From IMG/VR virus record IMGVR_UViG_3300037313_001869, positions 352,001-416,000 of that record: a stretch of 64,000 bases of DNA; one strand, 5' to 3'. The translations under genes and the position numbers were made by a program. Under the pieces are notes generated by a model. It did not search any database, was not told the origin of the DNA, and saw only the letters and a list, made by a program, of their open reading frames with translations. This DNA comes from a virus. Lineage: Duplodnaviria > Caudoviricetes. Positions 3,072 through 28,314 of this stretch are shown piece after piece (position 1 is the stretch's first letter; every line of letters begins with the position of its first letter).

Positions 3072-4151
3072 TAACCACTTGCCGTCGCGCACGCCGGGGG
3101 CCGGAACCGGCTTCGGCGAGAGGTCCCGGATCTGCTCCTTCGGGATCTCGATGCTCTTGGCGATGTCGGCCGCGAGGTGCATCCCCTTCTGGAAGCCCAG
3201 CTCCTTCAGGCCCTTCAGGTTGGCGAGAAGGGGCGTGCCTTCGAGCGCCTTCAGGTCCTCACGGTAGTAGTCGAACCAGGGGTAGCCGCGCTGGCGGTAG
3301 TAGTCGGCCGAGGCCGGGGTCGAGGGCGCCGGCTCGCCCGTGATGATCTCCCAGGCCAGGCTGTTGGCGAGGCTGACGAAGCACCTCTCCTTGGCCGAGA
3401 GGTCCCACACGTCGAGCCCGTGCGGGTCGTCGAACACCTGCTGCTTCATCTTGCCGCCGGCCGCGAGGCCCATGTCGGCCGCCGGAGCCGCCGCCGCGAA
3501 GGACATGCACTCCAGGGCTCCGCCCATGCTCTCCAGGCTCCTGATGCCCCGGCCGCGGTAGCGCCGGTCCTCGGGCACGATCGGGAACTTCTTCTCGAAG
3601 ACCTCGCGCTTCATCGGGTAGGCTTCGATCTGGATGCCGCCGAAGGTCTCCTTGCCCGTGAGCTGCGCCTCGACCGTGAAGCCCATCCCGAGCGGAGCGG
3701 CGACGAACTGGCGGATCGTGCCCTTCTCGACCGTGAAGCCGTCGAGCCACGGCTGCTCGGGGATCGTGACGTAGTCCTTCGCCCGCAGCTCGTTCGTCCA
3801 CGCCTCGCCCGTCACGGCCGAGCGCATCCCGGCGCCGATCTTGAGCGCGATCGGGTAGTTGGTCTGCCGCTCCTCGTCGAAGGTGCCGCTGAAGGAGAGC
3901 CAGAGCGCCTCGGCCTGGTACATCGGCAGGAAGATGCCGCCCCGCTCGACCCACGAGGCCGGCACGCGCTCGCGGTAGGAGTCCACCTTGCGCAGAGGGA
4001 AGCTCCCGAGACCCGGGGGCAAGGGGTAGTTCTTGCCGTCGTCGGGGATGCGGATCGTCCGCTCGAACTCGATCTCGGCCTTGGCCGAGGGGTGGACGTT
4101 CGGGAACGCGAACGCGAGGCGGGTGTTGTGCTGAGTCAGGTCCATCTTCAT
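3072..4151 (-). CDS. conserved hypothetical protein (RTxRIPDDG..YPLPPGLG family), ends at TTA
   Basis: motifs LPMYQAEALW, QPWLDG, IRQFVA, YPWFDYY; ends VRDGKW then TTA and hairpin. Confidence 0.75.
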
Positions 4152-6379: not shown

Positions 6380-7063
6380 TAAGACGTTCGTGAGGAACTC
6401 GTCGTCCGACGGCTCGACCTTCGCATCGCTCGGAGCCGGGATGGTCCGCTCCTCGGGATCGGGCTCGTTCACCCGGTCGTAGCGGTTGCCGCCCGGCAGG
6501 CTCCCGGTCTTGCCGCAGAGGCGCTCGACGAACTCCACCACCTGCCTTACCGTCGCCGCCTCTCCCCGCAGGATCAGGGTCTCCTTGTCCCCCGAGACCT
6601 TCAGGTAGTAGCGGACCGGCATCGGGATCTCGGCCGAGGCCGACGGAACGCCCTGGCCGTAGCTGCCGGTCTGCATGGACCCGGTGACCGTGTAGGGGGC
6701 CTTGTCCTCCGGCCGGCCCTGGGCCTCGCGGATCTCCAGCTTGGCCCCCGTCGCCCCGCCCGTCTCGAAGACCGAGGTGTAAGAATACAGGTGATCAGCC
6801 ATGCCGTTCAGGACGGCCGCGGGGGTGTGCTCGACGATGTCCTTGGCCTCTTTCAGGCCGAGGCCCGTCACCTGCCGGACGGCCTTGATGCAGTTGATCC
6901 GGTTGATGCCCGGGTCGACGAGAACGAGCACGCTCGGCACCGGCCCGGCCGCCCCCGGTCCCGCGAAGCGCTCGACGAGCCCTGTCGCCTCCGAGAGCCG
7001 GGCGATCTCGGTCTTCAGGATGGCCTTCTGGCCGTTGATCTCCATCTTCAGGTAGGCGCGCAT
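6380..7063 (-). CDS. protein with ribosomal bL12 (L7/L12) C-terminal-like domain, ends at TTA
   Basis: [23 protein letters not shown]; sequence after TTA looks non-coding. Confidence 0.75.
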
Positions 7064-7064
7064 G

Positions 7065-7373
7065 TAAATACTCCTCCGGCAGAAGCGCCGTCGTCACCGA
7101 GCGATCGGCCTCGGTGATCACGTACACCTTCTGCTTGCCGAACTGGTACACCGACAGGAGCCGGTCGCCCGAGGTGACGCCGTCGTCGTTCGCCTTCTTG
7201 TCCTCGGCGCACACGTTGCCCCAGTCGGCCTTCGCGTGACGGGCGAGAAAGCCCGACAGAACCTCTCCGGTCACGCCCGCGGCGGCGACGCCGGATGTGT
7301 AGACGACCTCGCCCAAGCGAAAGAGGTTCTGCTCGGGCATCACAATGACAAGGGGGGCTTTTTTCATGTTCAT
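7065..7373 (-). CDS. conserved plasmid/phage protein (RH..GDWG...N...RLLSVY...ITEADRS.TT.LLPEEY), ends at TTA
   Basis: family-typical end LLPEEY followed by TTA, 1 nt before next ATG. Confidence 0.8.
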
Positions 7374-26231: not shown

Positions 26232-26535
26232 GATTTACCGCCTTTCCCCAGAAAAAGAACCGGGGGACTTTTTAGGAGGCCCGGGCCTCCGAGGGGCCTT
26301 TTCGGTTTTACCTGAAAAATGCGGCCGGGCCAGTTTTTCCATGGGAGATACCGGGTTTTGCCCGGTCACGATCCATTTCCGCTCGCCTACTGAATACGCC
26401 CATTTACGCTACCCGTGCAAAACGAAAACGATAATGAAGCGGTTTTTCGTTGCACTTCCGGAGGGTCTACCCAGTGACCCCCGGAGATACGTTTCAGTCT
26501 TACGAGCGGGTTCGATGGGCACTACCCTCCCGTCC

Positions 26536-26721
26536 ATGCAAGAAAAAAGCGATGCGATCGAGAGACCGAACCGCAAGATGCGCCGGGCCGTGGCGAAGAC
26601 CTACCGATCGAACCCAGGGGCCGAGGTGGTAGGTCTTGAGCTACCGCGCGAGGACATGACCCGCGACACGAAGAGGCGCGAGGGAGGGAAGACGGGCCGG
26701 TTCTTCCCCTCGGGCACGTAA
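26536..26721 (+). CDS. small basic protein
   Basis: MQEKSD...NRKMRRA; TAA stop shared with convergent TTA. Confidence 0.6.
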   Translation: MQEKSDAIERPNRKMRRAVAKTYRSNPGAEVVGLELPREDMTRDTKRREGGKTGRFFPSGT

Positions 26722-26997
26722 GTCAACGAAGAAATCGCGAAGGGCCTTCTTGGCCTCTGCGAGGGTGGAGAAGCTCTTCTCGTCGAGGGCGTCTGCCCCC
26801 GGGCGGGAGAAGGCCCGGCCCACGAGGGCCACCTTGTAGCCGGTGACCTCGACCCTCTGCTGTCGGGTCGAGCCCACGTAGGAGACGGAGACCTCCCGCT
26901 CGATGTAGCCCACGAGGGCCTCGCCGTGGTGGACGAGGGCCGAGGGGTTGTTGCCGGGGGTGACCTTGCCGAGCTTGCCGAAGGAGAGGAGGGACAT
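26719..26997 (-). CDS. hypothetical protein, ends at TTA
   Basis: MSLLSFGK...ALRDFFVD then TTA; class I motif upstream. Confidence 0.7.
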
Positions 26998-27004
26998 GGG
27001 GGAG

Positions 27005-27031
27005 AGACGAGCGGGAGGGGGGCTTTTTTCC
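27005..27031 (-). promoter_or_regulatory. class I promoter-like motif
   Basis: GGAAA-N17-CGTCT. Confidence 0.75.
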
Positions 27032-27069
27032 AAAAAAGCCTTCCCCAGGGGGGTGTACTGGAGGGGGCG

Positions 27070-27744
27070 ATGCGAAACGCTCTTCCCGTCAAGCCGGCGG
27101 AGTGGCCCGAGCGGGCCTACAAGCTGGCGTACGTGAGCCCGTCCTGGGGCCCGGAGGGGTCTAGCCGAGACCTCTCGGACCTGATGAAGCTTCCGGTGCC
27201 GAGCCTGCTCCTGCCGCCCGCGGTGGTGCTTCTCTGGGTACCTGGGGGCAAGCTGGAGGAGGGGCTGGATCTGCTCTGGGGGTGGAAGCTCCATTACCGG
27301 GGGGTCGCGTTCGTCTGGGTGAAGACCGACAGCAAGGGGGTACCTCTCGGGGCGCACGGGCCGAGGCCGACGGTCTCTTCGAGGGGGTCAACCGAGCTTG
27401 TGCTGGCGGCCGAGACGGGGCCGGAATACGTGCTCGCGGGATCGACCGAGAAGAGGGGCCGGCCCTTGCCCATCGTGGACGAGACCGTGGGCCAGGTGGT
27501 GATGGCCCCTGTAGGTCCTCGGCCCCCGGAGGTGCGAGCGAGGATCGAGCGCATGTACGGCTCGGCCGTCTCTCGGGTCGAGCTGTTTGCGCCGGGCGAG
27601 GTACCGGGGTGGGACGTATGGGCCCCCGGGGCCGCGGTGGTGGTCTCGGCTCCTTCTCGGGAGGGGGCGGAAGAGAAGCCTGCCCCCCAGGGCGGGACCG
27701 AGAAAGAGGGCTTCGAGCTGGCGATGGGCCTCGACGATGAGTGA
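27070..27744 (+). CDS. MT-A70 family methyltransferase homologue, catalytic motif degenerate
   Basis: LLWV, AFVWVK, STELVL, RVELFA, GWDVW; DPPW replaced by SPSW. Confidence 0.75.
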   Translation: MRNALPVKPAEWPERAYKLAYVSPSWGPEGSSRDLSDLMKLPVPSLLLPPAVVLLWVPGGKLEEGLDLLWGWKLHYRGVAFVWVKTDSKGVPLGAHGPRPTVSSRGSTELVLAAETGPEYVLAGSTEKRGRPLPIVDETVGQVVMAPVGPRPPEVRARIERMYGSAVSRVELFAPGEVPGWDVWAPGAAVVVSAPSREGAEEKPAPQGGTEKEGFELAMGLDDE

Positions 27745-28066
27745 AGAGACCCCGAAGCCCCCGATGCGAAAGGGCGACCGCTACCGGGTGCGGGCTCCGT
27801 ACGGGGGCTGGGCCGAGGGCCAGGTGATGATCGTCTCGGAGGCCCGGGCGTGGGGCGGCTGGCTCGGGGGCTTCCGGGTGCAGCTCATGGGGCAGGAGCA
27901 GCGAGGGGACCTCTTCTTCGAGATCAGCGTCACCTTGAAGACGACCGAGGCCGTGGCGGCGTGGCAGGAGAAATGGGAGCTACTGCCCCGGGCCAAGCGA
28001 AAGAGCCCTTCCCACCGGGCCTACGGGCGAAGGGTCAAGAGCCGCTTCGAGAGGGTGCTCGGGTGA
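27737..28066 (+). CDS. SH3-like hypothetical protein, RF tail
   Basis: ends KSRFERVLG. Confidence 0.7.
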   Translation: MSEETPKPPMRKGDRYRVRAPYGGWAEGQVMIVSEARAWGGWLGGFRVQLMGQEQRGDLFFEISVTLKTTEAVAAWQEKWELLPRAKRKSPSHRAYGRRVKSRFERVLG

Positions 28067-28314
28067 GACTGCCCAGGATGGGCGCTTGCTTTCAGCTCGT
28101 CCGGCCCTTCGGGGGCTGGACGGTGGGCGAGAGGGTCGAGGTCGGCGCCATCAACGACGGCTACGTCTGGCTCTGGACCTACCCCGAGGTTCTCAACCCC
28201 TACGGCCACCGGGACTGGACCGCCTGCGTGCCCCTGAAGGGGTGGCTGAAATGGGTGAAGCCCTGGAGAGAGGTCCCCCTGCCCACCCGGTACGAGCGGG
28301 TGCTCAGCGGGTGA
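28063..28314 (+). CDS. SH3-like hypothetical protein, RY tail
   Basis: ends PTRYERVLSG. Confidence 0.7.
   Translation: MRLPRMGACFQLVRPFGGWTVGERVEVGAINDGYVWLWTYPEVLNPYGHRDWTACVPLKGWLKWVKPWREVPLPTRYERVLSG

Follow-up and report, generated by a model that had tools for sequence, protein, structure and literature searches.

TTA at gene ends in a 435-kb high-GC phage genome: a probable fourth stop codon and a possible two-way TAA/TTA stop

Whether a TTA codon, which specifies leucine in the standard code, can end a gene is the question raised by a short locus in a 64,000-nucleotide stretch of viral DNA (the window; positions refer to it unless given as genome positions). The window comprises bases 352001–416000 of virus record IMGVR_UViG_3300037313_001869, a complete phage genome of 435,218 bp with direct terminal repeats and a GC content of 66%. 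A minus-strand open reading frame (ORF) starting at ATG 26997 contains 92 sense codons, the last of which encode ...ALRDFFVD, and the next codon in frame is TTA at 26721–26719. Read-through under the standard code would add 26 codons (TTA plus 25) before TAG at 26643–26641, antisense to a plus-strand ORF at 26536–26721, as the preliminary description of this DNA had stated. That plus-strand ORF is closed by TAA at 26719–26721, and the sequence bears out that this TAA and the minus-strand TTA occupy identical base pairs. From this geometry, a pair of convergent genes sharing one 3-bp stop had been proposed. The elements concerned are as follows.

26719–26721, both strands: the triplet TAA (plus)/TTA (minus), in-frame terminal codon of the minus-strand gene and stop of the plus-strand ORF.
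26722–26997, minus strand: coding sequence (CDS) of a 92-residue protein (P0001, residues 1–92), assessed by composition, remote homologues and an AlphaFold2 (AF2) model.
26641–26718, minus strand: run-on of 25 codons plus TAG, translated only if TTA is leucine, assessed by composition, homologues and the confidence score of the model (pLDDT).
26536–26721, plus strand: ORF P0002 of 61 amino acids, or 68 from an alternative ATG at 26515, ending in TAA and having weak coding scores.

The triplet at 26719–26721 is certainly a gene end in TTA, and TTA marks gene ends in this genome. Judged from sequence, the minus-strand gene most probably ends at TTA 26721–26719 after 92 residues, and UUA would act as a fourth stop codon in this phage and in its closest high-GC relative; we assign this reading a probability of roughly 0.87. 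The earlier claim that TTA terminates is supported by the drop in coding signal at the site, the ends of homologues, genome-wide codon statistics, the tag of a transfer-messenger RNA (tmRNA), and 13 shared stops at convergent junctions.

In the minus frame, the GC content of third codon positions (GC3) was 0.90–0.97 from the start to about 26740 (0.93 across the CDS) and 0.56 in the run-on. The codon log-odds score, trained on long high-GC3 ORFs, and the third-order periodic Markov score were +0.50 and +0.37 bit/codon before TTA, and −0.46 and −0.38 bit/codon after it, respectively. The run-on at 26641–26718 is most likely an untranslated 3′ region. A hairpin directly 3′ of the TTA folded no better than shuffled sequences (z = 0.31).

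A word-indexed search of 5.8 billion proteins with the minus-strand protein as the query returned only the query itself. HMMER, run exhaustively against 1.84 billion representatives, yielded three remote relatives, P0003, P0004, and P0005. P0003, a protein of 88 amino acids with 43% identity, aligned to query residues 1–91; it ends in ...IFAGK followed by TGA, compared with ...DFFVD followed by TTA in the query, with an offset of one residue. The comparison of homologue lengths suggested in the preliminary description was thereby answered, the nearest homologue stopping within one residue of TTA. P0005 also aligned to query residues 1–91, and its own longer C-terminal tail was unrelated. P0004, a YDG-repeat protein with a weak match (E = 3e-4), was set aside as probably a chance match. 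Because none of the three conserved any sequence past FFVD, the homologues do not refute termination at TTA. The AF2 model was confident to about residue 100, and pLDDT fell below 50 from residue 104. A search for the function of the 92-residue protein gave no Pfam, PHROG, or PDB fold match, and the Atlas leads were below the useful range.

The behavior of all 64 codons was compared across the genome by collecting each occurrence of a codon after 40 stop-free coding-like codons and scoring the next 40 codons. The median downstream score of TTA was −0.40 (n = 49), with 10% of the cases still coding. Those of TGA, TAA, and TAG were −0.60, −0.41, and −0.39 (n = 204, 37, and 52, respectively), and those of the other 60 codons were −0.02 or higher, AGA being the lowest at −0.02 and most lying at +0.3 to +0.45. 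TTA differed from the pooled rare sense codons (Fisher test, p = 2e-9) and not from the true stops (p = 0.8). TAA, TAG, and TGA still behaved as stops in this test, and all other codons looked standard; UUG (249 in-frame cases) and UCA (median downstream score +0.27) were ordinary sense codons.

When TTA was given to the gene finder as a stop, the model grew from 537 to 585 genes and assigned 86.4% of the genome to coding sequence instead of 82.7%, with a higher total score. Stops in this gene model were TGA in 377 genes, TAG in 81, TTA in 67, and TAA in 60, and the genes ending in TTA, about 12% of the total, included some of more than 1100 codons. TTA gene ends often fell in operon-type junctions, namely TTATG (six times), TTAATG, and TTAccATG, which by their sequence look like operon coupling sites. 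Under the same GC3 criterion, in-frame TTAs after coding sequence numbered 101 in the phage, compared with 6 across 480 kb from high-GC bacterial loci. Back-up standard stops were not enriched shortly 3′ of TTA.

Gene ends were also compared with those of bacterial homologues and of related phages. The closest high-GC relative, G001 (IMGVR_UViG_3300036715_004341; 69% GC), was independently assembled from another metagenome. The following two genes of the window were informative.

3072–3074, minus strand: TTA ending a gene for a 359-residue protein (3075–4151), assessed by homologue ends.
7065–7067, minus strand: TTA ending a gene for a 102-residue protein (7068–7373), assessed by homologue ends.

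The gene at 3075–4151 ends in ...VRDGKW followed by TTA, and G001 has ...VRDGKW followed by TGA at the same residue; bacterial homologues from several phyla carry VR[ED]G.[FW] plus TGA, TAG, or TAA at the position of the TTA. The gene at 7068–7373 ends in ...LLPEEY followed by TTA, and TTA is also found there in G001. All seven lower-GC relatives compared for this one orthologous gene have ...LLPE[ED]Y plus TAA or TGA exactly at the TTA position. In four further phage genes, TTA lay 0–4 residues from the stop of the orthologue, with an exact match in one of them at ...LRV, and each apparent alignment across TTA elsewhere in the genome held the orthologue's stop within 0–4 residues. G001 showed the same TTA statistic, its gene number and score rose with TTA as a stop, and a TTATG junction and a shared TAA/TTA stop occurred in it once each. 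In another relative, G002 (618 kb, 58% GC), the score fell with TTA as a stop, and TTA resembled a rare sense codon. The use of TTA as a stop was present in this phage and IMGVR_UViG_3300036715_004341, and absent in IMGVR_UViG_3300022719_000283.

Because TAA and TTA are reverse complements, one triplet can stop both strands. The preliminary description had called for a genome-wide count of exact TAA/TTA overlaps at convergent junctions; in the gene model, 13 of the 46 junctions (about 28%) had an exact 3-bp overlap, in each case pairing TAA with TTA on the opposite strand, compared with about 0.03 expected under independence of stop choice and spacing (TAA and TTA each end approximately 10–11% of genes). 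No other junction among the 46 was spaced at −3. Both partners of the 13 shared stops were coding-like up to the triplet, and read-through of the TTA gene would extend 23–817 codons antisense through the partner. A well-supported case in the window is given below.

50930–50932, both strands: TTA ending the plus-strand gene 50315–50929 and TAA ending the minus-strand gene 50933–51994, from the gene model.

A further witness lies outside the window. A tmRNA was detected on the minus strand at genome positions 269912–270439 with an Rfam score of 78.8 bits; it was missed by ARAGORN and, at 528 nt, is oversized for its family. In its tag frame, ANDNFAASPALAA precedes the TTA, beyond which six further codons lead to TGA, so that the encoded tag ends in ...ALAA before the TTA. 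This canonical tag end exists only if TTA terminates, and the tag therefore indirectly supports TTA as a stop.

If UUA is a stop, translation of the gene at 26997–26722 would stop at UUA and give a 92-residue protein. Release at UUA would fall to a class-I release factor from the host with a broadened specificity, which we consider the most likely mechanism because UUA termination in labyrinthulean mitochondria and peDinoflagellate plastids has been linked to RF2 variants substituted at Ser204 (PMC12574857) and because the phage encodes no release factor. In this scheme, TTA would have become nearly extinct at 66–69% GC before a release factor gained the broadened specificity.

Several observations weigh against the view that UUA is a true stop. 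The final helix of the AF2 model extends three residues beyond the TTA position, to residue 95, and only three homologues of the target protein, all remote, were found, the best end-match among them being off by one residue. At genome positions 89879–89881 on the plus strand, about 35 codons beyond an in-frame TTA still look coding, until TGA is reached at 90043; this TTA may be a sense or leaky codon, or the pattern may result from a recent truncation or from a small gene lying in the same frame. The phage itself contained no protein with a PCRF or RF-1 domain and no GGQ in a release factor-like context. When metagenomes were scanned for RF2 carrying Ala or Gly in place of the serine of the SPF motif, 10 contigs were obtained, half of them at 65–69% GC, and TTA appeared to be a sense codon in all six contigs that could be judged. 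Among high-GC (65–70%) contigs, the serine was replaced by Gly (GVHRLVRIGPFD) in L143, L147, L148, L149, and L151, and by Ala in L150. L143 and L148 showed synonymous differences between TTA and other Leu codons, at a site common to L149; TTA occurred in a conserved LysRS-like motif in L144 and within coding sequence in L151, and a Pfam Tocopherol_cycl match ran through TTA in L150. Since TTA appeared to be sense in the six judged contigs, the Ala/Gly substitution in RF2 alone does not predict a TTA stop.

We weighed other explanations of the TTA gene ends. UUA could be an unassigned hungry codon without a tRNA, at which the ribosome stalls and a rescue route, either drop-off with a Pth2-like hydrolase or another factor, frees the chain. 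Such unassigned codons are possible in very high-GC bacteria, as exemplified by AGA and AUA in Micrococcus luteus, and it agrees with this explanation that the 44 phage tRNAs include Leu anticodons CAA, GAG, and CAG and none with UAA, that the phage lacks a release factor, and that it carries a PTH2-family hydrolase and the tmRNA. However, if the tmRNA tag closed with an unassigned codon, the rescue system would itself stall, and the coupling at TTATG and TTAATG implies orderly termination and re-initiation. About 12% of the genes would have to end in this manner, including those longer than 1100 codons, and drop-off is inefficient for long peptidyl-tRNAs. Searches of the phage for rescue factors found no SmpB, bacterial Pth, or ArfB-like GGQ protein. 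Stalling and rescue, the main rival for the mechanism, thus appears rather improbable. A +1 slip converting UUA to UAG or UAA was tried as a general mechanism and ruled out by the base that follows TTA: among the 54 non-shared TTA stops, 23 are followed by C, 16 by G, 12 by T, and 3 by A, and the slip would land on a Tyr codon in 35 of the 54; the context at the target site is TTAC.

The standard code would instead make TTA leucine and the minus-strand product a protein of 118 amino acids reaching TAG at 26641, with an 81-bp overlap with the plus-strand ORF. Exactly this product was given by the gene caller of the record, the ORF is indeed open to 26641, and the TTA at genome position 89879 is possibly sense. 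Nevertheless, the tail is non-coding in composition, unconserved, and predicted to be disordered, and the genome-wide evidence places TTA at gene ends, which leaves this reading very little probability. Still less credible is a sequencing or assembly artefact in which a real TAA or TGA was miscalled as TTA: about 67 sites would have undergone the same precise change with no other kind of stop loss, G001, assembled independently, keeps TTA at the orthologous gene end and shows the same statistics, and the 13 shared stops need the same base pairs as TAA on the complementary strand. In the preliminary description, an error at the target site had been dismissed on the ground that a functional TAA fixes the base pairs. 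The dismissal itself stands, because of the roughly 67 sites, the TTA conserved at the G001 gene end, and the tmRNA tag, whereas the argument used for it is insecure, as it needs the plus-strand ORF to be real. Compared with these alternatives, UUA as a genuine fourth stop remains the preferred reading.

Whether the triplet at 26719–26721 also ends a second gene is a separate question. In that case both ORFs would be genes, and the one triplet would end both, the plus-strand gene through TAA and the minus-strand gene through TTA. The exact geometry of the triplet and the like arrangement at 13 other junctions of the genome speak for it. The plus frame is the best of the six in 26536–26718, with GC contents of about 0.70, 0.50, and 0.80 at codon positions 1, 2, and 3, respectively, and its coding-like signal begins close to an ATG. 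The gene caller of the record also predicted a product here, of 68 amino acids from ATG 26515, and without a plus-strand gene a gene-free gap of 487 nt would be left, which is unusual for a genome that is 86% coding. Against a shared stop at this site, the codon log-odds of the plus-strand ORF was 0.07 bit/codon, below the 5th percentile of predicted genes (0.16), and its Markov score of 0.00 bit/codon was below those of all 135 short predicted genes, although above 99.6% of wrong-frame decoys. No homologue other than itself was found among the 5.8 billion proteins, no clear Shine–Dalgarno (SD)-like ribosome-binding site was seen, and the gene finder of this analysis left the ORF uncalled. It would, moreover, be a lone plus-strand gene within a minus-strand run, and a weak minus-strand terminator-like site (26568–26545) lies inside it.

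The convergent gene pair of the preliminary description is therefore retained in part: the minus-strand gene is clearly coding, whereas the status of the plus-strand ORF as a gene was not confirmed, its scores being weak and homologues being absent. From its sequence features, we doubt that the plus-strand ORF is a real gene, and the reading in which one triplet ends two genes here is correspondingly tentative. Because the plus-strand ORF is barely coding-like and has no homologues, two-way use of the triplet at the target site is only possible, with a one-sided TTA stop as an alternative.

Other TTA gene ends of the window, all taken from the gene model, are the following.

6380–6382, minus strand: TTA ending the gene 6383–7063 for a 227-residue protein.
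54342–54344, minus strand: TTA ending the gene 54345–54590.
58962–58964, plus strand: TTA ending the gene 58698–58961.
61003–61005, plus strand: TTA ending the gene 60577–61002 and overlapping the next start (TTATG), a coupling like TAATG/TGATG.

The 227-residue protein of 6383–7063 contains a ribosomal L7/L12 C-terminal domain (Pfam, E = 1e-12) and is thus translation-related. The target minus-strand gene is the first of a leftward run from 26997 down to 23668, which is divergent from an MT-A70 DNA methyltransferase gene at 27070–27744. A perfect palindrome, GGCTTTTTT/AAAAAAGCC, was found at 27021–27040, between the divergently oriented target and methylase genes. Two adjacent small genes, at 27737–28066 and 28078–28314 on the plus strand, encode near-identical C-terminal tails (...SRFERVLG and ...TRYERVLSG). 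A gene-free stretch of 300 nt with lower GC spans 26232–26535 and contains terminator-like hairpins at 26275–26305; no Rfam family was found in the whole window, including this stretch.

Among the phage tRNAs, a class-II tRNA of 93 nt with a CUA (amber) anticodon and A73 is encoded outside the window, at genome positions 331929–332021 on the minus strand. Recoding of TAG was considered in view of this tRNA and ruled out, TAG acting as a stop at about 81 genes. The PTH2-family hydrolase gene (genome 332417–332695) lies about 400 nt upstream of tRNA(CUA) on the same strand, as does a tRNA-like sequence whose anticodon loop is odd and which was called by neither ARAGORN nor Rfam. As for the host, a BLAST comparison of the phage tmRNA with five candidate host genomes gave noise only. 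The family of the 359-residue protein was examined as a host pointer and rejected as too widespread; the protein belongs to no Pfam family and has more than 300 relatives at about 50% identity with the conserved C-terminus VR[ED]G.[FW], in Krumholzibacteriota, Planctomycetota, Acidobacteriota, Gemmatimonadota, and other phyla.

To our knowledge, the known code changes in bacteria and phages are all changes from stop to sense or amino-acid swaps. Sense-to-stop changes have been documented only in mitochondria and, since 2025, in one plastid lineage (PMC12574857). In the full-text literature, of which coverage was incomplete, UUA termination was found in organelles only (PMC12574857, PMC6551751, PMC4824035, and NCBI table 23), with no phage or bacterial case. 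Table 23, the code of Thraustochytrium/Labyrinthulea mitochondria, resembles the code proposed here in that UUA is the sole added stop beside TAA, TAG, and TGA and that UUG stays Leu with its own tRNA-Leu(CAA). The UUA stop of labyrinthulean mitochondria has been tied to a Ser204 substitution in mtRF2a (Zihala et al. 2020, as cited in PMC12574857). Unlike that mitochondrial system, the present one concerns a 435-kb high-GC phage and a presumably bacterial host, and the phage exploits the TAA/TTA two-way stop at about 28% of its convergent junctions. In peDinoflagellate plastids, UUA and UCA serve as stops, which was called the first sense-to-stop change outside mitochondria (PMC12574857). The change of UUA from Leu to stop was deduced there, as here, from a codon found only at homologue-defined gene ends, whereas UCA is sense in the phage, no RNA editing is visible in the phage, and the plastid case is organellar. 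The mitochondria of Marsupiomonadales and Pseudoscourfieldia terminate at UUA and UUG by means of an altered mtRF1a (PMC12574857, PMC6551751); UUA ends genes in both systems, whereas UUG is sense in the phage, which encodes tRNA-Leu(CAA).

Large phages that read TAG or TGA as an amino acid, such as Lak phages (PMC8346664) and crAss-like phages (PMC7886860), share with this phage a non-standard code and many tRNAs, including the suppressor-type tRNA(CUA). The direction of the change in this phage is opposite, however, from sense to stop, and TAG is still a stop. In Streptomyces and its phages, the rare UUA is Leu, read inside genes by the regulated bldA tRNA (PMC10732093). High GC and a nearly absent UUA with a special role are common to both, whereas UUA in the phage is at gene ends only, with non-coding sequence downstream.

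For the annotation of this genome, TTA as a stop would mean that standard gene callers attach false C-terminal extensions, up to hundreds of residues long, to about 12% of the proteins and miss about 50 genes. The complementarity of TAA and TTA provides a compact two-way stop, which is used at more than a quarter of the convergent junctions in this genome. By analogy with the organellar systems, it seems somewhat probable that a phage clade, and by implication its high-GC host, has a four-stop code with a release factor reading UUA, which would be the first sense-to-stop reassignment outside organelles. If the host reads TTA as Leu, the trait would point to a phage-encoded redefinition of a host codon. 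If the four-stop reading is true, a free-living bacterial translation system can gain a fourth stop, and this phage would offer a tractable test of codon capture, in which a codon nearly extinct at 66–69% GC was taken by a release factor.
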